Positions 7,730 through 23,562 of a stretch of 64,000 nucleotides of DNA are shown one piece after another (the first letter of the stretch is position 1; each line of letters starts with the position of its first letter). A program made the translations under genes and the position numbers. Below the pieces are notes generated by a model that saw nothing but the letters and a program-made list of their open reading frames with translations, did not search any database and was not told the origin of the DNA. Origin of the DNA: an uncultured virus (IMG/VR IMGVR_UViG_3300042295_000410) (lineage: Duplodnaviria > Heunggongvirae > Uroviricota > Caudoviricetes); IMG/VR virus record IMGVR_UViG_3300042295_000410. The stretch is one strand, 5' to 3'.

Positions 7730-7791
7730 ATCAGCTCCTTGTTGCGATGTATGTATTATAACAGGTTTTACCAACCCTGTCAACCGAAGGG

Positions 7792-8148
7792 TTATTCAAC
7801 GCCCACAGACACATCGACCTCAATATCTGTAACGTCGCCAGCGAGATCGTACTTAATACCCGTCACAGCCGCGCCGTAGTTGACCTGCTTGAGACGCTCT
7901 CTGATCATGCTTTCGAGGTCGCCCATCATATCGCCAATGAAGTCAGTGGCGCTGTCTTTAACGCCACGCAGGGTTTCGTTGATCCCATTGCGCGACATGT
8001 CCTCTTGCCCGTCCATGATCATCTCAATGAAAGCTTCTGTCTGGCTGATCAGTACTTGCTCTACAACGGCATTGACCAGTTCGCGCTTGCCAAACAACAA
8101 CTCAACGGCCTTAAAGGTCTGCTCACCTGCTTTATACACTACAGTCAT
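7792..8148 (-). CDS. hypothetical protein
   Basis: AGGAG SD; promoter. Confidence 0.8.
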   Translation of the reverse strand: MTVVYKAGEQTFKAVELLFGKRELVNAVVEQVLISQTEAFIEMIMDGQEDMSRNGINETLRGVKDSATDFIGDMMGDLESMIRERLKQVNYGAAVTGIKYDLAGDVTDIEVDVSVGVE

Positions 8149-8199
8149 CGTCTTCTCCTGTTAAACAAGTATGTATTATAACACGGTTTTACCAAAGTG

Positions 8200-8472
8200 T
8201 CAAGCGGTTTCTAACATATTTGCAGGCACCCTCCACAGGCCCTGGTTAGTACGAACTGTTACGTATTTGATCGCGATCTTGTCTACGACACCCTGCATAG
8301 TGATGCCTGTTTTAGTGCTAGTGAACTTCACAGCACTGCCCAGCGTGACAGAGCGTTTGGTCTTCTCTGCAAGGCGTGCTCGGGCAAATTTCACAGCGTC
8401 GATGATGCTGGTCAGTTGATCGTTAGTGAAGTTGCCTGCAAGAATCTCATTGTTGATAGATTGAACGGACAT
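8200..8472 (-). CDS. hypothetical protein with SH3-like C-terminal half
   Basis: AAGGAG SD; G.V.KI..KYV.V.....WRV pattern. Confidence 0.8.
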   Translation of the reverse strand: MSVQSINNEILAGNFTNDQLTSIIDAVKFARARLAEKTKRSVTLGSAVKFTSTKTGITMQGVVDKIAIKYVTVRTNQGLWRVPANMLETA

Positions 8473-8499
8473 ATCAGCTCCTTTGTGTGTAAGTGTATA

Positions 8500-8664
8500 T
8501 TATACGGTAAAACCGATAACCTTGTCAACCATTGGGTTTTTGCGAGCCACAGCCCGCCATGCCCGATTGGCCTTGGTCCATTGTTCGTGATTGGTGGTAA
8601 AGCCCGGGAATCGATCCTTGGCCCAGATCACAAAGTTCAAACGTTCAATTTCGTTCTTCATCAC
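8500..8664 (-). CDS. hypothetical protein
   Basis: GTGA overlap with upstream gene; GGAG SD. Confidence 0.65.
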   Translation of the reverse strand: MMKNEIERLNFVIWAKDRFPGFTTNHEQWTKANRAWRAVARKNPMVDKVIGFTV

Positions 8665-8939
8665 ATGCTCCAGTAGAGTTCGCTTGACGGATCGCAACTG
8701 CGGGGAGTGTCGTGTGCGATCTCAACCATTGCCCCAGTCATCAAGTTCTTAACAGTCTTCATGCTGGGAGTCCAGTCGAAGCGGAAGCCGTCTTCTGGCC
8801 TGTACAAATGGAACAAGTCCGCTACAGTGCGGCGCATGGCATTGTCATCCGCTACGGGCCAAACTGTAGTAGAGAACAAGCGCTCTCCGGTCTTTGTACG
8901 ACGATCTGCTTTGTAGATGTATAGTGTATAACTCATCAT
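8661..8939 (-). CDS. hypothetical protein (TP.SCDPSSE.YWSM C-terminal motif)
   Basis: AAGGAG SD; promoter. Confidence 0.85.
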   Translation of the reverse strand: MMSYTLYIYKADRRTKTGERLFSTTVWPVADDNAMRRTVADLFHLYRPEDGFRFDWTPSMKTVKNLMTGAMVEIAHDTPRSCDPSSELYWSM

Positions 8940-9010
8940 TGCTCCTTAGTGTGTAAGTGTCAATTATAACACGGTTTTACCAACTTGTCAAGTGTTACTT
9001 GAAGTGACAC

Positions 9011-9349
9011 TTAGTCCCCACGAACGTCTGTATTTAAAACAGGCTTAACCATTCTGCGGATCTCTACTTCACGCTTGTGGGCTTCTGCCTTGCCTCGTAT
9101 AACTTCATGCACGTATACTTCAATCTCGCTCTTGTCGCTCAGTGTGCGCAACTCAGCACAGAGCAGCCAGTTCTTAGTCTCAGTCTTGGCACGATAGAAG
9201 TGTTTAGCGGCACGACTCAAAACACTCTTGTTCACAGTGCTCTCTGTCTTAGCTGTGACGCCAATGTAGTTCTTGCCGTTGACCACAAGCTCATAGATGA
9301 TATGATTGCGGTCTACACGCTTCTTACGGGTTACTGTTTGTGTCGTCAT
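9011..9349 (-). CDS. GIY-YIG-like nuclease domain protein
   Basis: IIY(x8)YIG motif, conserved Arg and C-terminal E...LN; leaderless start. Confidence 0.65.
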   Translation of the reverse strand: MTTQTVTRKKRVDRNHIIYELVVNGKNYIGVTAKTESTVNKSVLSRAAKHFYRAKTETKNWLLCAELRTLSDKSEIEVYVHEVIRGKAEAHKREVEIRRMVKPVLNTDVRGD

Positions 9350-9476
9350 AGTGTATTATAGCAAGGTTTTACCAATCAGTCAACCAAAGACCCTCCAAAT
9401 GATCTGTGTTCAAAATACAACAAGACAGGCACTCCAAAAGATGCTATAATACATACTTAAACAACAAAGGAAGCAC

Positions 9477-9728
9477 ATGTCAAAAGTATACACTGCAAAC
9501 ACTGCAAAAGCTAAAATTGTATATAATAAAGAAAAAGAAGTATATACTATTATCTGCGCTTTTAATGTTACAGAACAAACAGATAAAGGTGCTTGGAAGT
9601 TTCCCACTCGTGCTAAATGCGATTTTGTTAGCGGAGATTTTGTTTGGGAAACTATACAAAAAGATAAAGAGCGTATTATCTCTACTGCAAAACAAACTAT
9701 GCGTACAGATAATATTGAGTTTGTTTAA
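9477..9728 (+). CDS. hypothetical protein, the only plus-strand early gene
   Basis: Promoter AAGACA-N17-TATAAT at 9422-9450 with extended -10; AAAGGA SD. Confidence 0.8.
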   Translation: MSKVYTANTAKAKIVYNKEKEVYTIICAFNVTEQTDKGAWKFPTRAKCDFVSGDFVWETIQKDKERIISTAKQTMRTDNIEFV

Positions 9729-9826
9729 AAGATAATCCAGATAATCAGTTATTGATTATCTACATAATAGACTATACTGTATATAGTGAGATAATACTCC
9801 AATATACCAGTATAGTCATTATATAT

Positions 9827-10041
9827 CCCGTATATACGCAAGTGTCATTATACGGGCCCGCAGACCTTGTTCCTGCTCAATGAGCTAGACTTTGCCGCTT
9901 ACCACATTCCGGCCGGTCTTTCACTGTATAGTACACAGGTCTAGGACTTCTGCTCATGTACTTGGTCCCCACTCCCATCCGGTAAGCGACTGTGGTTAAG
10001 CTCATACACTACCTATACAGTTACGGTTTTCTCTACTGTAT
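9827..10041 (-). ncRNA. candidate structured non-coding RNA, ~210 nt
   Basis: Promoter TTGCCC-N17-TATACT at 10048-10076; nested stems, possible pseudoknot and 3' hairpin. Confidence 0.6.
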
Positions 10042-10336
10042 GCGTATAGTATAACATCATTAGCTAGTTTGGGCAACTGTGGGGCTGAAAAACCCTGCTA
10101 ATAACCGGTGTATTTCCAGCATTTCTGTGGCGAAAATGCCACTTTTCCAGCATAAGATGCTGTGGTTTGGCTGTGGATTCACCGTGATTTCTAGGGTGCG
10201 GGCTGTGGTGGGGCCATGGTGAAGAGAGGTTATCGTAAAATGGTTTTCACCGTTCTTCCTCAGGTTCTCTCAGGTTCTCCCACCGCCAATCATTGTAGAA
10301 GTTTGAGTTCTCTTTACTGTGTGAGGGGCCTCTTAT

Positions 10337-10471
10337 AGCGGGGTATTTGACTATGTGTATATACGCTGTATGACTAATCCCCAATAGACCTACAGCGGGG
10401 TATTTGACTATGTGTATATATAAGAATCCCGCTATAACGTATTAGGCTGTAGCGGGGTATTTGGGTGTATA
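10337..10471. repeat. three direct copies of AGCGGGGTATTTG (two extend to ACTATGTGTATATA) plus one inverted partial copy
   Basis: Copies near 10338, 10394 and 10451; inverted CCCCGCTA near 10428. Confidence 0.85.
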
Positions 10472-10497
10472 CAGTGTAGTGTATATATACTGTGTGT

Positions 10498-11229
10498 TTA
10501 GAACTTAATCCATGTCCAGTCCATACCGTGTACAGGTGTTAGTCCCACATGACTTCTTGGTATAAAGTATTTGTCCGTTTTGATCTTTAATTGATCAACT
10601 AGATTACTATACACACTGTCGACCATTACTAGACTTTCTGCGCCTTCTATGATCTTTAGCCAGTCGAAGATGCTGTCAGTTTCCGCTTTGATATACACTG
10701 TTTGCCAGTCGCTGGGTATTATACTGGGATCGAAGTTGGCCGTGTGATCGCTGCCTTCTAGATGTACTACTGCGTATTTTTCATTGGTAATGATCTTGTC
10801 ATATAGACGTTGTTCTCTTTGTGCATCACGCTGAATACACTCGCTAAGTTTCCACTTGTTTAAGAATGGTACGCCCGCTTTGATGTACTTGTATTGATCA
10901 AACTTGGTCTGTTGAAAGTACAGTTCTTCGTGGAATTTATGGCCCGTCAGTGCTTGATACAGGGGGATGATCTCGTCACAATGAAAGTTCTTCAGGGCCT
11001 TCATGGGTTGGTCGTAGAAGAAACTGCCCGGGTCTGTCTGCACTGGAATCCATTTGATCCAGGGTACTGTGTGTTCAAAGTGCGAGATGAATTCTGTACA
11101 TATGGGCCACAGAATATCCCAGCCTTGATCGTGATAAAATTTAGCTATGGGCAGAGCTATCACTATGTCGCCTAGACCTCTTGATTGTACTATGCCCAGT
11201 TTGGGTCTACGTGGAGATTTTGCTGTCAT
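10498..11229 (-). CDS. glycosyltransferase, GT9/heptosyltransferase-like
   Basis: GLGDIVIALP N-terminal motif and ..VMVDS C-terminal motif. Confidence 0.65.
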   Translation of the reverse strand: MTAKSPRRPKLGIVQSRGLGDIVIALPIAKFYHDQGWDILWPICTEFISHFEHTVPWIKWIPVQTDPGSFFYDQPMKALKNFHCDEIIPLYQALTGHKFHEELYFQQTKFDQYKYIKAGVPFLNKWKLSECIQRDAQREQRLYDKIITNEKYAVVHLEGSDHTANFDPSIIPSDWQTVYIKAETDSIFDWLKIIEGAESLVMVDSVYSNLVDQLKIKTDKYFIPRSHVGLTPVHGMDWTWIKF

Positions 11230-11237
11230 ATTGTTGA

Positions 11238-11996
11238 TTAAAAGTATTCGCCGCGGGGATGATCCGGGAACCAGCATTCATTGCGTTCCTGTGGTAGATC
11301 TCTGCGTAGTTCACAGGCCCAGTCCGCTCCCAGTCCTATGGCCAGACTCAAACCTAGGCTTTGATTGCCCACGAACTGATCCGCACCCGCAATGACTTCA
11401 GCCAACTCCAGTAGGGTCTCTGTGGGATGATAGGGTATGGCCCAGTTGGCAAACTTACAGAACTCTTGATGCTCTTCGGGTAGACCCACAAACACAGCTC
11501 GATCTTCTGCTTGATCACGAATGGCTGTCCAACCTGTTAGACTGTCGGGACTGTTCCAACGAGCGGACCTGTTGACCACTATTTCCGCAATGGGCGTGGG
11601 CTTGGGCACGGTGAGCCAGGGTTGATTGCGTAAAATTGTGCGCAGACCCGGCTCTCGGATCTTGAATGCTTCTGCGTAGCAGTCCACATAGTTGCCCGGG
11701 TGACCCACGAACAAGGGTCTGAATAGATCCAAATTGTGCGTGATTTCCTCTTTGGGATCCAGTGCATCACAGCGTGTGATGTAGTCCTGGGCCAGGAAAA
11801 AGCTCTGCATGAAGTCTAGATCTTTTGGGGTCATGCGACCCTGATGGAATGGGTTTGGGGGGCTACCGTAGTAGTGTTGACCTATCCAGTCAACTTGATT
11901 GAGGTGTAGATAAAATTCTCCACCGCCAAAGTGACGCATTATGGGCAGAGCATATATGATGTCGCCCATGGTACCTGAATGTTTGTATCGTTTCAT
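11238..11996 (-). CDS. glycosyltransferase, GT9-like
   Basis: GTMGDIIYALP; LLELAEVIAGADQFVGNQS...LA. Confidence 0.7.
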   Translation of the reverse strand: MKRYKHSGTMGDIIYALPIMRHFGGGEFYLHLNQVDWIGQHYYGSPPNPFHQGRMTPKDLDFMQSFFLAQDYITRCDALDPKEEITHNLDLFRPLFVGHPGNYVDCYAEAFKIREPGLRTILRNQPWLTVPKPTPIAEIVVNRSARWNSPDSLTGWTAIRDQAEDRAVFVGLPEEHQEFCKFANWAIPYHPTETLLELAEVIAGADQFVGNQSLGLSLAIGLGADWACELRRDLPQERNECWFPDHPRGEYF

Positions 11997-15311: not shown

Positions 15312-18257
15312 ATGCTTCTAGATCAATACCCCAAAATCAATACAGACCTAATCAAAGAAATCCCCTGGGGAGGGGATGAGTTTTATTATGACCAACAATT
15401 ATACAACTTAGGTGAAGGCGATACTGAATTCTTAGTGATAAATCCTTATGCAAGACATTCTAGTGTCTTGAACTTTGTAAATGATGTGCCTAAAACAAGA
15501 AAATGTCTAGTTTGGACATACAAAGGTGAGTGGGTAGCCAAACTGTTTAAAGATGGGTGGCACCCATATGCTGGATATGAAACACATGAAATAGAAGTAC
15601 CAAAGAATCACATGTGGGCAAAAACGCCTATCTGGAAAAAGAATTCTGCAATAGCAAGTTCTATTACATTTGAATTTAATCCTATAGAAAGTTATGTATA
15701 TAATCAAGACGATGCTGACTATACGTTAGTTTGGTACATTGATCCTAGAGTCAATCCTTTAGAAGATAAAATATGGGCATTTACTTGTGAGGTGCCTGGC
15801 GCCAACGTTAAAGGCGAGAAAGACATGGGATACGTTATGCCTGAAATGCGAGTTACATGGAATCCTGATCTTCCTAAACTACTCATCGATGTCAACGAAT
15901 GTTATCCGCCATTTTGGTTTCTGGATTACGTTACTGCACTTGAGCTGGATCCTAACTACAGTCCAAAACCAGGTACTTGGTTGATTAAGTTTGAACCTAA
16001 ACGTAAAAAAACTTCTAAATGGGAATGGTTAGGCACAGTTAGTCCTGAGTTTAAAATTGAACAAAATCCTAGCCTACCAGAAATGCGTTTTGATTTAGAT
16101 TACGACATTCCTTGGCACGATCTAGCCTATGAACATATATGGTATCTAGACAAAGAAATAAACGGGGAGAAGATTTGGGCTTTGAAAATTACTCCCAGTG
16201 CAGAGATTGTGGGTGTTAAAGAAATAGGAACAGTTACTCCTCTGATTGCCGAAACACTGGATGTAATCTTTATTAGTTACCATGAATCTAATGCAGAAGA
16301 GAATTGGCAGCGTGTTTTAGAAAAAGCACCACATGCCAAACGTGTGGATGGTGTTACTGGTATCTTTGAGGCACATAAGGCAGCGGCTAAGTTATCCAAG
16401 ACTGACATGTTCTATGTAGTCGACGGTGATGCTTACTTAGTCGATGACTGGCAGTTCGACTACCAACCAGAGATATTTGATAGAGACTGTACATACGTCT
16501 GGCACAGTAAGAATCCTGTTAATGATTTAGAATATGGTTACGGTGGCGTTAAATTATTCCCTAAGCGGGCATTTGGCAAAATCAAAGTTTGGAAAACATT
16601 AGACCTACTGACGACTATTGTTCCTAAATTAAAAGTCTTCGATAAAGTCAGTAACATTACAACATTTAACACAGACGAGTTTGCCACATGGCGAAGTGCA
16701 TTTAGGGAAACAATTAAGTTATGCAATACCATTGCACAAGATCCCGATAATGCTGAAGCTATTGATAGATTGGCAGCATGGGAGACTCTGGGAGTAGATA
16801 GGCCGTTCGGTAATTATGCATTATCTGCTGTACATTCTGCTAAAGAGTTCTTTGATGCAAATAAAAATACACCAACATTACAACAAATAAATAACAGGTC
16901 CTGGTTACTCACAATGTTCAACTCAAAAAAAATAACTGCCTTCGATTACAAACCTATTAAAATTGTCAAAAAAGAAGATGTAGTTGCAGTTGCAACAAAT
17001 ACAACCACAATATGTGCAGTGCCCTGGATGCATCTTGCATTTGAACCTAGTGGAAAAGTAATTCCGTGTTGCCTAACCTCTGTACATAATTATTTTGCTG
17101 GTGATCTAACACATCAGAGCATTGAAGAAATTTGGAACAGCGGCAATATGAAATCTTTAAGAAAAGATATGATAGGGGGCAAAGAGCCCGAAATATGCCG
17201 TAAATGTTTTGATAGAGAACGGGTCACTGGTGAAAGTGGTCGTTTCTATCACAATAGAGACTTTCCAGAGGTAGTAAAAAAAATTCCAGAAATTACACTA
17301 GCAGACGGAACATGCACTACTATGGAGTTGAAGTATTGGGATTTCCGTTTTAGTAATCTTTGCAATTTTAAATGTCGTAGTTGCGGACCACGTTACAGTT
17401 CAGCATGGGTGCCGGATGCTAAAAAATTAGGCCTCACTGATCAAGAAAAAATATGGAGCATCGAATCAGTAGATGATAAGAATAACTTTGATTTTCTAAA
17501 AGATCAAATTAACCATGTGGAAAGAATTTACTTTGCTGGAGGCGAACCTCTACTCATGCCTGAACACTGGCAAATTTTAGAAATGTTGGTAGAAAAACAA
17601 CGATTTGATGTTAAACTATCATATAACACAAATGCATCAGTGTTATCTTATAATAAGAAAAATGTTATTGACTACTGGCGGCGATGGAACTTTGGCAAAT
17701 TAGAAATATGGCCCAGTATCGATGAAGTTGGAGAACGTGCAGAACTCATTCGAGCCGGCACTGTATGGTCTAAGGTTGAGTCAAATCTAAAAGAATTGAT
17801 GACATTAGATAATGCTATCATACGCCCGGGTATTACTGTAGGTGCTTGGAATGTTGGCAGATTTCCTGAAATTATTAAACATTTGATTTCAATAGGAGTT
17901 ATACGTCAACATCCTAAAACCAAATTTATTAATTACAATAATTTCTTCATCAATTTGTTAGAACATCCTTCACATTATCATGTTAGTATTCTACCCGATG
18001 ATTATCGTGCAGAGACTGTAATTAAATTAGAAACTTTTGTCAAAGAGCACAACGAAACATATAATACAAGCATAGATCATCTTTTAACACATATCATACA
18101 TGAATTAAAAAAACCATTTGATTTAACATCAGCAAAGAAATTTGTAACAGTGACGGAACAATTGGATAAGTTAAGAGGTGAGAATACTTATGAAATCATA
18201 CCAGAAATGAAATTAGTGTTAGAAGCAACAAGGAATAATGAATATGGACAAGATTGA
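15312..18257 (+). CDS. fusion protein: N-terminal repeats, GT-A-like glycosyltransferase domain, Twitch/SPASM radical SAM domain
   Basis: DVIFISY...VDGDA; CAVPW...PCC...CRKC; CNFKCRSC; FAGGEP. Confidence 0.85.
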   Translation: MLLDQYPKINTDLIKEIPWGGDEFYYDQQLYNLGEGDTEFLVINPYARHSSVLNFVNDVPKTRKCLVWTYKGEWVAKLFKDGWHPYAGYETHEIEVPKNHMWAKTPIWKKNSAIASSITFEFNPIESYVYNQDDADYTLVWYIDPRVNPLEDKIWAFTCEVPGANVKGEKDMGYVMPEMRVTWNPDLPKLLIDVNECYPPFWFLDYVTALELDPNYSPKPGTWLIKFEPKRKKTSKWEWLGTVSPEFKIEQNPSLPEMRFDLDYDIPWHDLAYEHIWYLDKEINGEKIWALKITPSAEIVGVKEIGTVTPLIAETLDVIFISYHESNAEENWQRVLEKAPHAKRVDGVTGIFEAHKAAAKLSKTDMFYVVDGDAYLVDDWQFDYQPEIFDRDCTYVWHSKNPVNDLEYGYGGVKLFPKRAFGKIKVWKTLDLLTTIVPKLKVFDKVSNITTFNTDEFATWRSAFRETIKLCNTIAQDPDNAEAIDRLAAWETLGVDRPFGNYALSAVHSAKEFFDANKNTPTLQQINNRSWLLTMFNSKKITAFDYKPIKIVKKEDVVAVATNTTTICAVPWMHLAFEPSGKVIPCCLTSVHNYFAGDLTHQSIEEIWNSGNMKSLRKDMIGGKEPEICRKCFDRERVTGESGRFYHNRDFPEVVKKIPEITLADGTCTTMELKYWDFRFSNLCNFKCRSCGPRYSSAWVPDAKKLGLTDQEKIWSIESVDDKNNFDFLKDQINHVERIYFAGGEPLLMPEHWQILEMLVEKQRFDVKLSYNTNASVLSYNKKNVIDYWRRWNFGKLEIWPSIDEVGERAELIRAGTVWSKVESNLKELMTLDNAIIRPGITVGAWNVGRFPEIIKHLISIGVIRQHPKTKFINYNNFFINLLEHPSHYHVSILPDDYRAETVIKLETFVKEHNETYNTSIDHLLTHIIHELKKPFDLTSAKKFVTVTEQLDKLRGENTYEIIPEMKLVLEATRNNEYGQD

Positions 18258-19587
18258 TCAATTAAGAACAGAAATTATTGAAAGTGAGACATTTTGTTTT
18301 TATCCTTTTACACAACTAAGTTCTAATCCCGCTGGCCACCTTAAACCGTGTTGTAATTATGTAGGAACAATGACACACCCGAACGGAGATATCATTAGCA
18401 TTTTATCCGGGGATAATTTTAGTGATGCGTGGAACAGCGAACACCTTGTTGATTTAAGAAAAAAATTACATACAGGAGATACTCCTGATGCTTGCAGGCG
18501 TTGCATTCGAGACGGCGACGTTAGTATGCGTACACGGTCAATTGAAGATTATAAAAATAATCGAAAAACATTAGAGATAGTTGCCAACAGCATAAACAAC
18601 AGTTACGAAGTGTTACACCAACCAACATATTTAGAATTAAAGCCTAGTAATTTGTGCAACCTTAAATGTGTCATGTGCAACAGTTACGACAGTAGTCAGA
18701 TTGCTAAAGAGTTAGGTGAACTTAATAATAAATTTGGTGGCATCAAAGTATTAGATGGAAGATTTATTGAAATTTCCAGTGTGTTTGGAATCACTGAACA
18801 TAATAAAACATGGAAAGATGTCGAACATCCCGATTGGTCTGATAATGAAGAAATATGGGAAAGTTTTACAAAATTAGCACCTGGACTAGAAGTATTAAGT
18901 TTTGCCGGTGGTGAACCTACAATTATGCCATTTGTGTTAAAGGCACTGCAATATGTTGTAGACAATGATCATGCTAAAAATATTACTGTATTTTTGTCCA
19001 GTAACTTTACAAACCTAAATAAAAACTTTTTAGAGTTAATGCCTAAGTTTAAAAAGTTTGAACTCATTGCCAGTATTGACGGGTTTGATAAAGTCAACGA
19101 TTATGCTAGATATCCTAGTAAATGGCGCCAGGTATCAAAGAATTACATTGAAGCAAAGAGTTATATGAAACACAGCAATGTTAAGATATTGAATAATATC
19201 ACCGTTAGCTCATTGAACATTGTTAACTTAGATAGCCTATTATATTTTATAGAAGAACAGGCCAAAGTGCATCCATACTTTAAAGAGTGGCCATATAACA
19301 TCAACTTAATTATGTTTCCGATGGAACAACAAATATCAATGTTACCACAGTCTCTGAAAGATTTAGCTACACAGAGATTAACAGCATATCTAGAAAATAG
19401 TCAAGTCATTAAAGATTTTCCCGGACTAGATGGAAAGATACACTTGTTATTAAATGAATTAACCAAGCCTGACAATCCGAAACTGTTTAAGGTATTCAAA
19501 CATAGAATTAAAATACTTGATGACCATAGAGGAATTTCAATCGGCGATTATATTCCAGACTTGAAAGATGCTTTTAAACATGACTAA
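18238..19587 (+). CDS. radical SAM protein with N-terminal Twitch-like domain
   Basis: CFYPF...PCC...CRRC; CNLKCVMC; AGGEP. Confidence 0.9.
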   Translation: MNMDKIDQLRTEIIESETFCFYPFTQLSSNPAGHLKPCCNYVGTMTHPNGDIISILSGDNFSDAWNSEHLVDLRKKLHTGDTPDACRRCIRDGDVSMRTRSIEDYKNNRKTLEIVANSINNSYEVLHQPTYLELKPSNLCNLKCVMCNSYDSSQIAKELGELNNKFGGIKVLDGRFIEISSVFGITEHNKTWKDVEHPDWSDNEEIWESFTKLAPGLEVLSFAGGEPTIMPFVLKALQYVVDNDHAKNITVFLSSNFTNLNKNFLELMPKFKKFELIASIDGFDKVNDYARYPSKWRQVSKNYIEAKSYMKHSNVKILNNITVSSLNIVNLDSLLYFIEEQAKVHPYFKEWPYNINLIMFPMEQQISMLPQSLKDLATQRLTAYLENSQVIKDFPGLDGKIHLLLNELTKPDNPKLFKVFKHRIKILDDHRGISIGDYIPDLKDAFKHD

Positions 19588-20815
19588 GACATATTGCCCG
19601 TTAGCATGGAATCATTTTTCTACACACACTGATGGCAATATGCGTCTTTGTTGTAATTCTACTAATGCAGGAAGATTAAAGAAAGATGGCAAGTTTGTAA
19701 AAATAAATGAGATAACAAGTTTGATTGAATTTTACAATATTGATCAATTAAAAAATATAAGAAAGAAAATGATAGACGGCGAGCGGGTGGCCGAGTGCCA
19801 GCATTGTTATAATGTTGAGGACAATGGGGGTGAAAGTGTTAGAAATTGGTTTGTAAAGAGATGGCCGATTGAAGATATTATAACAAACACTGAAATGCAT
19901 ACGGGCAAGTTAGAATCTGTTGATGTAAATTACTTAGATTTAAGTTGGTCGAATAAGTGTAATCTACAATGCAAGATGTGTACCCCGGGAGCTAGCGATC
20001 AACTAATAAAAGAATTTAAATTCCTCAACATTAAACCATGGGGTGAAAAAGAAAGTGATTATAAAGCTCAATGGAACTATGATCAAATTAAACATATCCT
20101 TGACCTAGTAAAGACTGACGGATTAGTGCAGATATTAGTAACCGGTGGTGAACCATTAATCAACAACGATTTTTATACATTTTGTAAAGAACTAATTAGT
20201 TCAGGTTTATCTAAACAGGTTGACTTATCTATACATACAAATTTAACTGTGACACCGTCAAAATGGTTTGACATCTGGAGCCATTTTAAGACTATGACTA
20301 TTAAAGTAAGTATTGATGCTGTTGCTGATATGTACGAATATATTAGATATCCTGGAAAATGGAACATTGTTAAAGATAATATTGATAGCATAGTTCAATA
20401 TTCGAATGAAAACGAAAATATTGGTATCGAGTTTCACACTGTGTTTTCTATTTTTAATACACATAAATTTACAGAATTGTTAGATTATATTGTGAGGTTG
20501 GAAGGAAAGAATATTTTAAACTTTCCTCACATAAATTATATCTACGATCCAAGCTATGCATCCCCGAGTAATTTACCAACAGCTTATAAAAATACAGTGT
20601 ATCAAGAAATTGCAACCTGGTTTGAAAACAATAGAGAACTACTTGAAAAAGATGCAGTTAAAGAAAAGGCTAACATATTGAGTGCAATGATTACATTTTT
20701 AATCGGAACACCTGAGTCAGATATAAATTTTAAAAACAGTGTTTCGATAATAAAAAAGATGGATGCTTATCGAAATCACAATACAGAAAAATATTTGCCG
20801 TGGTGGAAAAATTAA
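19580..20815 (+). CDS. radical SAM protein with N-terminal Twitch-like domain
   Basis: CPLAW...LCC...CQHC; CNLQCKMC; TGGEP. Confidence 0.9.
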   Translation: MTKTYCPLAWNHFSTHTDGNMRLCCNSTNAGRLKKDGKFVKINEITSLIEFYNIDQLKNIRKKMIDGERVAECQHCYNVEDNGGESVRNWFVKRWPIEDIITNTEMHTGKLESVDVNYLDLSWSNKCNLQCKMCTPGASDQLIKEFKFLNIKPWGEKESDYKAQWNYDQIKHILDLVKTDGLVQILVTGGEPLINNDFYTFCKELISSGLSKQVDLSIHTNLTVTPSKWFDIWSHFKTMTIKVSIDAVADMYEYIRYPGKWNIVKDNIDSIVQYSNENENIGIEFHTVFSIFNTHKFTELLDYIVRLEGKNILNFPHINYIYDPSYASPSNLPTAYKNTVYQEIATWFENNRELLEKDAVKEKANILSAMITFLIGTPESDINFKNSVSIIKKMDAYRNHNTEKYLPWWKN

Positions 20816-20818
20816 CTG

Positions 20819-21601
20819 TTAGGTATATTTTATAAAATTAGTTCTATCCCAGTCCGGACCACGAAACTCCATTCTGTCATCAGTCCATCCTATGGGTTGA
20901 TACCCGTAACAATCAAAATCCTGAGGATAAGTTGTTTTAGTTATAGTTACAGGATATTTTCGGTCTTTCATATCTTTAGATAATACATCTATGCAAAACG
21001 TTTTATAAAAATCAAATGCTGGCGGTCTGCATAGATATGCTTTATTACATTGACCAACTAAAAACATTTTTAAATTTAATGGATGTTTTTCTAAATATGA
21101 AAAAGTGCTAGCTGTAACCTGAGGAAACATGGTTGAAAAGAAATCATCAACAATAACAACTCCATAGTCAGACAAAAAATGATCAGCTAAAATTAAATCT
21201 TTATAGCATTGTGCATAACTATGATCGCCATCAATATGAAACCATGAATAATCGCGAGAATGTTCTTGAAAAATAGAATAATGAAAATGCACCAAACTGT
21301 TAGAATAATCATTTATTAATCTTAGATTTAATCCCTCAATCTTTGATAGTAAATTTGAATAAGTTGTGTCCATCCATTCACCGGGATCTACAATCACCTG
21401 CTGTGTGTTGTTGGCCTGTGCATATAGCCCACTTAGCATTGCAGACTTTCCATGTAATACACCTATTTCTAAAAAATTACGCACAACTTTATTTTCGGTT
21501 TGATAACCTAATAACGAGTCCCATACTAATGCACTGGGAAATTGTAAGGACCCTGGTATATCTTCAGATATAACATTATATTGATTTAAAAAACTTTTCA
21601 T
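20819..21601 (-). CDS. class I SAM-dependent methyltransferase (Methyltransf_24-like)
   Basis: LEIGVLHGKS; HIDGDHSY; GVVIVDD. Confidence 0.85.
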   Translation of the reverse strand: MKSFLNQYNVISEDIPGSLQFPSALVWDSLLGYQTENKVVRNFLEIGVLHGKSAMLSGLYAQANNTQQVIVDPGEWMDTTYSNLLSKIEGLNLRLINDYSNSLVHFHYSIFQEHSRDYSWFHIDGDHSYAQCYKDLILADHFLSDYGVVIVDDFFSTMFPQVTASTFSYLEKHPLNLKMFLVGQCNKAYLCRPPAFDFYKTFCIDVLSKDMKDRKYPVTITKTTYPQDFDCYGYQPIGWTDDRMEFRGPDWDRTNFIKYT

Positions 21602-23562
21602 TTTTTAAAATCTATTTCTGTGTAATTAACTATCTTAATAGGGATAACTTTGCTAGGCTCCTCTAAAACAGTTATTAGTTTTGGCCAACCAACTTGATCT
21701 CCATCTAAATGAGTGCCGTCGAGGTGTATTACAATACAATCATTTTCAAAATTATCTTCAACTCTAATTATTTTTCTTGTTTGAAGATCTGAAAACTGTA
21801 CAATTTTACCAACTGTTAATTCTTCTAAAATGTAAGGAACATGTGAAAATAATATTGCAGGCCCCCAATTTCTAGCAACACCATTTAACCAATTCTCATC
21901 CGAATGCCGGCTAATTGCATAAACATTTGAACTTGGGGTACTTTTTAAGAAACCTGAATATTCGAATAAAAACTTTTTAGCTATTTGATCTTCGGGATGA
22001 TCTTTAACCCATTCTGTGTAATAGTATATTGCTTTTTCTGGTTGACCTATTGCAATATAATATTGGGCAATGACTTGATTTCTATTGAGAAGATATGTCG
22101 ACGGATAAGTGGTTTTTATACCTAAGTCGGAAACTAATCGACAAAAATCTTCAAATCTTTTTAATCGAACTAGGAATGTGTTATTACCATCTACACTTTT
22201 CCAAAAAGTTCCGCCGAGTGTTTTGTCAATACCGAATTTTTCTGCGTTCTCCCATCCAGGAGTTCCGTTAGCAAATCCGCAAAATGCTGCACTGGGATTT
22301 ACATATAATTTATTTTTTGAATTACGTCTTAAAAACTCTAAGACCATTAATGAATCTTCTTCAGTTTCTCCCGGTAACCCAAACATGACATTGTAAACTG
22401 CATTAAGTCCGGTCCTTGCATGAGATTCAGCAATTTTATCAATATCGGCACCTTTTGATAATAACTTTCCTACACTCCTCATAAGTGTAGGGTTTGGAGT
22501 TTCTAATCCGTAGGCCATGACCACACATCCGGACTGTTTTAATTTTATCATCAGTTCTTCGGTCATTTCTTTTCTAATAACTGCCTGTCCGGCCCATTGT
22601 ATTTTAATTTTATTTTCAATGAGGTATTCGGCAAACTTTTCAATTGCGCTTATCTTCCCGTTACATAAACTATCTTGAAAGTCAATAAAGTCAATTTCAG
22701 GATATAATTTTAATTGGTACTTAACTTCTTCAATCATGCTTTCTGCAGACCGAAATCGATATGATTCCCAATAAGGTTGCTCATTACAGAATATACATTT
22801 ATTAGGACACCCTCGACTAGACGCCATTGGTAATCGTGTTGGGGATAGGTAAGGAGCTAATGAAAAATCACTGTAGTGGGGTATCGGAAGAGTGTCGATT
22901 TTTGGAATCATTGGCCTTGTTGGAGTAGCATGTACTGCTCCGTCTTTAAACACTAACAATCCAGGGCAATCGAGCAATGATTGATTTTTTCGAACACGCT
23001 CAATTATGTCTACTAATGTTTCTTCTCCCTCAGCCTGGGCGACTGCATCTATTAACGGATTTTTTGCCAAAACATTACCAGCTAGATATCGGTGGGCATG
23101 AGGACCACCGACAATAATCTTTAGCTCAGGCTTACGTGCTTTGAGCAGTTTGATAAGATGCATCGAAGTATGCATTGAAGTGTTGTATAAACTAAATCCA
23201 ACTAATGGTGTATTAGTCGACACCACTAACTCGACAAAGTCATCAATTTCTTTTTTGTATTCGGTTAACAGGTCATTAACGCAGTCTTTAGATTCCCAAA
23301 ACCACTGAGATTGATCTATGTCCCACATTATGGAAAATTTCTCAGGTCTAATAGCAAAAAATTCAACATTTAAATCTAATGGTAAAATCTTGTATCCTTT
23401 CTGCCGAACATAGGCTGAAAGTGATGCTAAAGAAAGCGGAGCTGTTTGCACTCCCCATCCAGGTGCCTGGACTAGTATTATATCGGGATTGTTCAAATTA
23501 CCATGATTTGTAGTTGAATTTGGAAAAACATCAGTTAGTAATTGTATAGATCTATCAGGCAT
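21598..23562 (-). CDS. cobalamin-binding radical SAM protein (class B methyltransferase-like)
   Basis: PLSLASL...GGPH...EGE B12 domain; SRGCPNKCIFC; GLPGET. Confidence 0.9.
   Translation of the reverse strand: MPDRSIQLLTDVFPNSTTNHGNLNNPDIILVQAPGWGVQTAPLSLASLSAYVRQKGYKILPLDLNVEFFAIRPEKFSIMWDIDQSQWFWESKDCVNDLLTEYKKEIDDFVELVVSTNTPLVGFSLYNTSMHTSMHLIKLLKARKPELKIIVGGPHAHRYLAGNVLAKNPLIDAVAQAEGEETLVDIIERVRKNQSLLDCPGLLVFKDGAVHATPTRPMIPKIDTLPIPHYSDFSLAPYLSPTRLPMASSRGCPNKCIFCNEQPYWESYRFRSAESMIEEVKYQLKLYPEIDFIDFQDSLCNGKISAIEKFAEYLIENKIKIQWAGQAVIRKEMTEELMIKLKQSGCVVMAYGLETPNPTLMRSVGKLLSKGADIDKIAESHARTGLNAVYNVMFGLPGETEEDSLMVLEFLRRNSKNKLYVNPSAAFCGFANGTPGWENAEKFGIDKTLGGTFWKSVDGNNTFLVRLKRFEDFCRLVSDLGIKTTYPSTYLLNRNQVIAQYYIAIGQPEKAIYYYTEWVKDHPEDQIAKKFLFEYSGFLKSTPSSNVYAISRHSDENWLNGVARNWGPAILFSHVPYILEELTVGKIVQFSDLQTRKIIRVEDNFENDCIVIHLDGTHLDGDQVGWPKLITVLEEPSKVIPIKIVNYTEIDFKK

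Follow-up and report, generated by a model that had tools for sequence, protein, structure and literature searches.

Does an ORF-poor gap in the DNA of an uncultured virus encode a structured RNA, and what kind of RNA would it be? The gap lies in a 64,000-nt stretch (hereafter, the window), which comes from a linear virus record of 67.7 kb. Since this record is estimated to be 19% complete, the source is probably a giant phage of roughly 350 kb. On one side of the gap is a minus-strand 259-aa gene, and on the other is an array of small minus-strand genes standing behind near-perfect sigma70 promoter matches. A first-pass annotation, all of whose quoted letters are found in place, proposed an independently promoted, structured, and pseudoknotted non-coding RNA on the minus strand. 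This proposal is borne out, the promoter by prediction and the fold by covariation. There is hardly any doubt that the RNA is real and folded as drawn here (Table 1), although its shape differs from the one first suggested.

Several other features of this DNA were observed. Near-perfect sigma70 promoters are dense at 7755-9383, each driving small genes. The sole tRNA within the window, tRNA-Arg(UCU), is located at 597-671, and a tRNA is also the only Rfam match in the whole window. Four radical-SAM genes (two with SPASM and one B12-binding) and a methyltransferase are clustered at 15312-23562. A search with T4 gp23 gave only sub-threshold matches, in two of four records.

Table 1. Positions of the RNA, its helices, and neighbouring features in the window
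Feature	Positions	Strand	Remarks
Conserved RNA core	9827-10029	minus	203 nt here; family 200-220 nt
P1 closing helix	10026-10023/9861-9858	minus	After 5' AAA; 4 bp; 95.2% paired
5' domain closing helix	10021-10013/9931-9923	minus	Domain span 9923-10021
5' domain long arm	10009-10004/9961-9956 (by eye), 9995-9992/9972-9969, 9990-9988/9979-9977	minus	Ends in 8-nt loop
5' domain small hairpin	9947-9945/9941-9939	minus	N-U-A loop
PK1 loop-loop kiss, 7 bp	9986-9980/9904-9898	minus	98.6% paired; two-sided changes at all 7 pairs
3' domain three-way junction	9862-9919	minus	Px, Py, variable hairpin, AGGAAYAA linker
Px	9919-9915/9866-9862	minus	100% paired
Isolated purine-pyrimidine pair	9914-9869	minus	Beyond AA bulge
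Py	9913-9910/9897-9894	minus	135/135 cells paired in hold-out rows
Base of variable hairpin	9888-9887/9874-9873	minus	Carries short variable hairpin
PK2, 3 bp	9892-9890/9842-9840	minus	Junction linker with terminal loop; 63/63 rows paired
Terminal hairpin	9856-9846/9838-9827	minus	Loop motif GANACYUGC; 88.4% paired
Predicted sigma70-type promoter, extended -10	10048-10076	minus	Start probably near 10041
Terminator-like hairpin	9770-9817	minus	Perfect 10-bp arms 9770-9779/9808-9817; weak U tail
112-aa GIY-YIG-like gene	9011-9349	minus	phrog_5123, E 8e-4; usual downstream neighbour; outside RNA unit
259-aa gene	10498-11277	minus	No family match
42-codon ORF	9877-10005	minus	Judged non-gene; not conserved, no Pfam match

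Homologues of the RNA

A first scan with an exact pattern and a scan with the upstream gene returned identical copies only, a scan with a loose 3' pattern was dominated by chance matches, and blastn found nothing relevant among GenBank phages or plasmids. Diverged copies of the RNA are found at the same place beside relatives of the neighbouring 112-aa gene (best 80 of 273 viral loci). Across these best 80 loci, the stand-alone GIY-YIG-like protein is 77-100% identical; tblastn with this protein gave no match among GenBank phages, and one locus (L132) has a second, inverted copy of the gene upstream. The helices were drawn by hand from the first 18 aligned rows, followed by scans with short 3' patterns, and the known range of the RNA rests on the loci found by these scans. 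An iterated profile identified true copies in 45 of 47 viral loci and 66 of 103 metagenome loci, thus confirming the RNA in viral and metagenome contigs. None was found in 29 cellular-genome loci, an absence that holds only for the exact scan pattern used.

In total, 535 loci gave 73 distinct matches, 66 of them full length. Nine of the 73 lacked the 5' anchor and were dropped (six cut at contig ends, two full-length variants whose starts lack AAACC, and one degenerate copy), and L358 was excluded from the alignment because its anchor was misplaced. The final alignment has 63 rows with a mean identity of 55% (minimum 38%), equivalent to about 30 effective sequences. Since the AGGAAYAA, GGG, and GANACYUGC columns were set by the scan patterns, the invariance of these motifs in the later rows is partly by construction; the first 18 rows include a few variants of them. 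With a covariance model (R1), window positions 9820-10030, which belong to its training set, score 152 bits, and L153 (full length) and L358 are recovered at 80 and 60 bits, respectively. The 29 cellular loci gave no match to the model at E<0.01, and the 37 unconfirmed metagenome loci gave two weak ones, of 20 and 16.5 bits.

A branched fold with two pseudoknots

The alignment defines two domains set on a short closing helix. P1 closes the whole RNA except for the last hairpin, with changes at both partners of columns 9/219 in 30 rows. The helices of the 5' domain are 84-98% paired on the 63 rows. PK1 links the loop of the long arm in this domain with the Py loop of the 3' domain, and PK2 connects the junction linker of the 3' domain with the loop of the terminal hairpin. 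Over the 63 rows, pairing is kept in 93.9% of 3,608 cells; column shuffles keep 66%, and slid controls 32-40%. Fifty of the 58 named pairs change on both sides, and the covariation score is 0.73 (about 0.1 in slid controls). In an unbiased ranking by mutual information, standard pairs fill nearly all of the top 30 places, and RNAalifold recovers most of the same nested helices. G-U pairs occupy 281 cells and A-C mismatches only 29, which indicates RNA-type pairing on the minus strand.

The fold also holds in the 45 hold-out rows, in which Px is paired in 225/225 cells, Py in 135/135, PK2 in 135/135, PK1 in 268/270 (6 of its 7 pairs), P1 in 170/180, and the arm in 154/176. Joint changes were counted on trees built without the tested columns. 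For a Px pair (columns 142/215), two PK1 pairs, and a PK2 pair, the joint changes (14, 8 and 6, and 2, respectively) equal the larger single-column count. The middle pair of PK2 is A-U in 36 rows and G-C in 27, but with two changes on the tree, PK2 rests on few events. The variable hairpin of the window copy (9873-9890) resembles the start of the D-arm of the tRNA(CAU) that neighbours the RNA in relatives. This likeness is not family-wide and is probably due to chance or local borrowing.

The first-pass annotation had instead drawn a rod with a central bubble, which is the minimum free energy (MFE) structure of the window copy taken as a single sequence. Three of its five tested helices pair at chance level (30-47%) on the alignment: the AUGAGCU/AGCUCAU stem in 38-47%, the AGUACAU/GUGUACU stem in 35%, and the UAGACCU/AGGUCUG pseudoknot in 30%. 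The GGUCU segment of the last in fact pairs in all rows with AGACC at 9919-9915. Two parts of the drawing persist, namely the last hairpin (85.6% paired) and the CUUACC/GGUAAG part of a 10-bp stem, which is PK1 of the conserved fold. The suggested 5' hairpin lies partly upstream of the conserved start and competes with a conserved long-range helix; in seven promoter-proximal relatives its folding energy ranges from -0.4 to -7.6 kcal/mol, and it is weak or absent in some. The single copy also fails the shuffle test proposed for it, since 64 of 200 shuffles fold as well (z -0.40). Four longer boundaries gave z between -0.3 and -1.1, and the rod by itself gave -1.9.

The rod had suggested a decoy of RNA polymerase. 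6S RNA is a long closing rod with a central bubble, is transcribed from an independent promoter, binds the sigma70 holoenzyme, and serves as a template for pRNA. The RNA described here shares its size class of about 200 nt and the independent promoter, and the rod-like MFE structure adds to the likeness. However, the outer rod stems are only 35-47% paired on the 63 rows, and the conserved fold is branched with two pseudoknots and has neither a conserved rod nor a central bubble. The Rfam comparison suggested in the annotation, 6S included, gave no match on the RNA stretch of the window (E<=10) or on 15 homologue loci (E<=5). A 6S-like decoy is thus very improbable.

The alternative put forward with the rod was a self-sequestered mRNA of a type I toxin, on the grounds that a 42-codon ORF spans the region. 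Of the 63 rows, 4 have an ATG at the homologous position and 17 have a span divisible by three, and indels across the rows break the frame. Because neither start nor frame is kept, the toxin reading is unsupported. The near-zero z of the window copy would suit this mRNA as well as a DNA-level structure or mere chance, but the excess of G-U over A-C and the strong covariation speak against all three, and we give them almost no credence.

Predicted promoter and terminator, and neighbouring genes

The promoter match proposed for the window copy, TTGCCC and TATACT with a 17-nt spacer and a TG extension, is present at 10076-10048 and agrees with the consensus at 9 of 12 positions. The scan found 24 such sites in 6 kb, as compared with 10.9 +/- 3.1 in shuffles, so that one promoter match alone is weak evidence. 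Similar matches end 12-19 nt before the RNA in six copies that have no tRNA (L002, L364, L468, L498, L408, and L470), the window copy included. A second tRNA-less subgroup has, by eye, a promoter-like site about 55 nt upstream. On the plus strand, a sigma70-type scan found no promoter match within 9830-10080, the nearest being at 9759-9795.

A same-strand tRNA(CAU) is present within 250 nt in 35 of the 49 copies that have at least 400 nt of upstream sequence. The gap to the nearest tRNA is 3-70 nt, and 14 of the 49 copies have no tRNA. The subgroup of the window belongs to the latter and has its own promoter match instead of tRNA(CAU). ARAGORN calls this tRNA Met. We infer that it is Ile2, because sister operons pair CAU with Arg(UCU) and Leu(UAA) and because ten genes of the window use AUA, AGA, and UUA for 31-35% of the respective codon groups. 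In two relatives, decayed tRNA-like or structured remnants are seen where tRNA(CAU) normally stands (L198:~1860-1905 and L188:~1750-1815).

The position beside tRNA genes bears on the possibility of a new ribozyme, in which the junction and the docked loop would act as a catalytic centre for cutting another RNA or the RNA's own transcript, in the latter case to release the tRNA or to define an end. Conserved unpaired G and A residues do cluster at the three-way junction and in the terminal loop, the fold has two pseudoknots, and theta ribozymes likewise sit 3' of tRNA genes, according to the available part of their description (PMC10879173). However, theta ribozymes cut at the tRNA 3' end, whereas the tRNA gap varies here and the tRNA can be missing altogether. 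Moreover, Rfam gives no match to a ribozyme family, and the helix order is unlike that of HDV, group I, or RNase P, judged by eye against consensus structures. A ribozyme is therefore unlikely. As separate candidates, RNase P RNA and group I introns were rejected, since they have no Rfam match and since the look-alike motifs violate the required helix order once the covarying pairs are fixed. Likenesses to cobalamin, FMN, and hammerhead RNAs, seen by eye against consensus structures, were also dropped after covariation had fixed the pairings.

At the 3' end, hairpins with a folding energy below -8 kcal/mol stand behind 63 of 64 copies, and a U-rich tail is present in 43 of the 64. In the window, the region 9700-9849 has a folding z of -6.1; the terminator scan made no call there. 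The next ORF in the window is convergent with the RNA, and the 9770-9817 hairpin possibly also serves a convergent 83-aa gene. The usual neighbour downstream, the gene of the GIY-YIG-like protein, is found near 49 of 64 RNA copies and has its own promoter match in 46 of 51 cases. A stand-alone unit is suggested by the length held at 200-220 nt, the hairpin after nearly every copy, the next gene's own promoter, and the presence of one copy in each of three large records.

These neighbours also bear on a small-molecule aptamer, either as a riboswitch or as a free sponge for a nucleotide of the host's immune or stress response. A compact and conserved junction resembling a pocket, a terminator hairpin directly after it, and an early position suited to counter-defence would all fit such a role. 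By eye, however, the terminator shares no strand with the fold. The next gene's own promoter makes control in cis unlikely, and the arrangement is not that of a riboswitch expression platform. We regard the aptamer as quite improbable.

Presence and absence among phages

Each of three large records carries one copy of the RNA (3/3). In sister phages that share the slot and have complete tRNA operons, the RNA is missing from this place, and an unfiltered covariance-model search of 19 loci gave a best score of 9.3 bits. In seven loci (L155, L169, L171, L180, L195, L202, and L204), a CAU/UCU/UAA tRNA operon occupies the slot of the RNA upstream of the 112-aa gene, and most of these sister operons have a small gene ahead of them. 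On a tree of the neighbouring gene, explaining the presence of the RNA takes 6 changes over 43 rows, of which strong branches force 3 or more; one row labelled as absent (L193) in fact has the RNA further upstream in its record. In a search of whole records, the RNA was found in 1 of 15; of the 14 without it, 13 have a completeness of 31% or less, and the other, a distant relative, reaches 92%. Given the sister phages without it and the patchy tree, the RNA is accessory and dispensable at the clade level. Likewise, the GIY-YIG-like gene is not its obligate partner.

The DNA upstream of the slot has its own conserved features. Three 30-nt repeats at a spacing of 57 nt, with the minus-strand core ACCCCGCT, are located at 10334-10477, and the window holds no others. 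Relatives have 2-5 copies upstream of the slot, and the sister group has a GGCCCCGCT variant. These ACCCCGCT repeats could be sites where proteins bind in an origin or packaging region. At 10207-10290, a purine-rich tract is followed by a conserved CCATTT...CCTCTC...CCCACC element and then by A/T-tract-rich DNA up to the promoter. The element is kept in phages with and without the RNA and could be a DNA element, e.g., an origin or terminus. Between the upstream repeats of four relatives (L135:~605-680, L133:~880-950, L140:~1170-1235, and L188:~1400-1470), there is also a small three-helix element with an outer CACUG/CAGUG-type stem, an inner hairpin, and an AAA linker. It is absent from the window, has no Rfam match in the loci scanned, and may be a second small structured RNA.

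Distribution and upstream DNA are both relevant to the idea of an RNA-only multimer, a ring or cage formed by the 7-bp kiss in trans, after the manner of the GOLLD and ROOL cages or a packaging-RNA ring, which would function in storage or DNA packaging. The covarying kissing loop of GOLLD proved to be intermolecular, RNAs under 200 nt can form cages according to the available part of a preprint (10.64898/2026.07.01.735769), and a conserved DNA repeat element is found just upstream here. However, covariation is blind to cis versus trans, and there is a single long kiss only. Furthermore, the early promoter and the patchy presence speak against an essential role in packaging. A multimer is distinctly unlikely.

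A proposed role

Our best explanation, in which we have moderate confidence, is a stand-alone and early-expressed RNA of a giant-phage clade that works as a non-catalytic, trans-acting binder. Host sigma70 polymerase would make the RNA at the head of the early-gene array. Transcription would start at the RNA's own promoter, as in the window, or the RNA would be the tail of a tRNA(CAU) transcript, and it would end at an intrinsic terminator. As the covariation shows, 7 bp form between the 8-nt loop of the 5' arm and a loop of the 3' domain, and the loop of the terminal hairpin docks into the three-way junction by 3 bp. Through packing by conserved unpaired adenines, the RNA would take on a compact shape of fixed size that needs no protein, and an oligomer would be possible if the kiss forms between molecules. 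More speculatively, its target would be a host factor in translation, RNA decay, or anti-phage defence, for which it would act as binding surface or decoy during takeover, and it could be accessory cargo of the tRNA slot. A shared promoter slot may be all that links the RNA with tRNA genes. As a second explanation, tentative and somewhat doubtful, the RNA could represent a new catalytic or ligand-binding class that acts at the start of infection, either as a ribozyme of a hitherto unreported fold with two domains and two pseudoknots or as a sponge for a signal of host immunity.

Comparison with known RNAs

Few large and highly ordered RNAs are known from bacteria and phages, and the solved ones are ribozymes or surprising RNA-only machines. 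To our knowledge, GOLLD, ROOL, and raiA are still without an assigned function. The present family adds a fold that has no Rfam match and that, at about 205 nt, is small enough for transcription, probing, and imaging all at once. Mutants can be guided by about 30 sequences that are effectively independent, and sister phages with and without the RNA occur naturally. Thus, the question of why phages keep ornate RNAs beside their tRNAs becomes testable in a much smaller molecule.

Rfam has no credible match on the RNA stretch, on the 15 homologue loci at the thresholds given above, or on two short cut-outs. To judge from these comparisons, the RNA family and its fold are new and lie outside Rfam 15, GOLLD, ROOL, and raiA. 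A literature search, covering the supplements of Fremin 2023 in part, found no description of the RNA. The viral motif screen of Fremin 2023 reports motifs of up to 151 nt in the part of the paper available (PMC10690425), and its motif set may hold a fragment of the RNA. In the available part of the COMPASS preprint (10.64898/2026.10.21.760802), no such RNA is named.

GOLLD and ROOL are both carried by phages beside tRNAs, as stated in the accessible parts of several papers (PMC5737381, PMC12286853, PMC12990946, and PMC7567579). The present RNA resembles GOLLD in being phage-borne, ornate, of unassigned function, and near tRNAs; GOLLD env-38 is located downstream of a Met-tRNA, and the near-tRNA location characteristic of GOLLD is seen here in 35/49 copies. 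The last module of GOLLD, P23-[P24, J24/26, P26]-P27 with L27 pairing into J24/26, is similar in topology, by eye and as a lead only, to the junction and terminal hairpin of the RNA. However, the linker and loop letters differ, and there is no sequence likeness in this module. GOLLD is also far larger, with 700-833 nt and a 375-nt 3' domain, as compared with 200-220 nt. A search with the GOLLD model, RF02032, gave no match in four records at E<=10 and found no GOLLD-bearing positive control. ROOL is likewise ornate, phage- and tRNA-associated, pseudoknotted, and of unassigned function in the accessible text (PMC5737381), but it has an average length of 581 nt, six junctions, and three pseudoknots, whereas the RNA has two pseudoknots in 200-220 nt and no Rfam match.

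In size, the RNA is closer to the raiA motif, which has about 205 nt, two pseudoknots, a P1 closing helix, and no known function, and which is a compact monomer, according to the part of its description available (PMC12968392). However, the same text places raiA in cells of over 2,700 bacterial species, whereas the confirmed copies of the present family are viral and metagenomic. raiA has P1, P3-P6, and both pseudoknots arising from one long linker, as far as that text goes; here, one pseudoknot is loop-loop and the other loop-junction, the pairing order is different, and there is no Rfam match. Theta ribozymes, which are minimal HDV-like RNAs, resemble the RNA as phage RNAs found directly 3' of tRNA genes, but in the accessible description they have a minimal HDV fold and cut at the tRNA 3' end (PMC10879173), whereas the RNA is larger, has another helix order, and lies at a spacing of 3-70 nt. 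The novelty lies in the family and the fold, and the function may turn out to be GOLLD-like.
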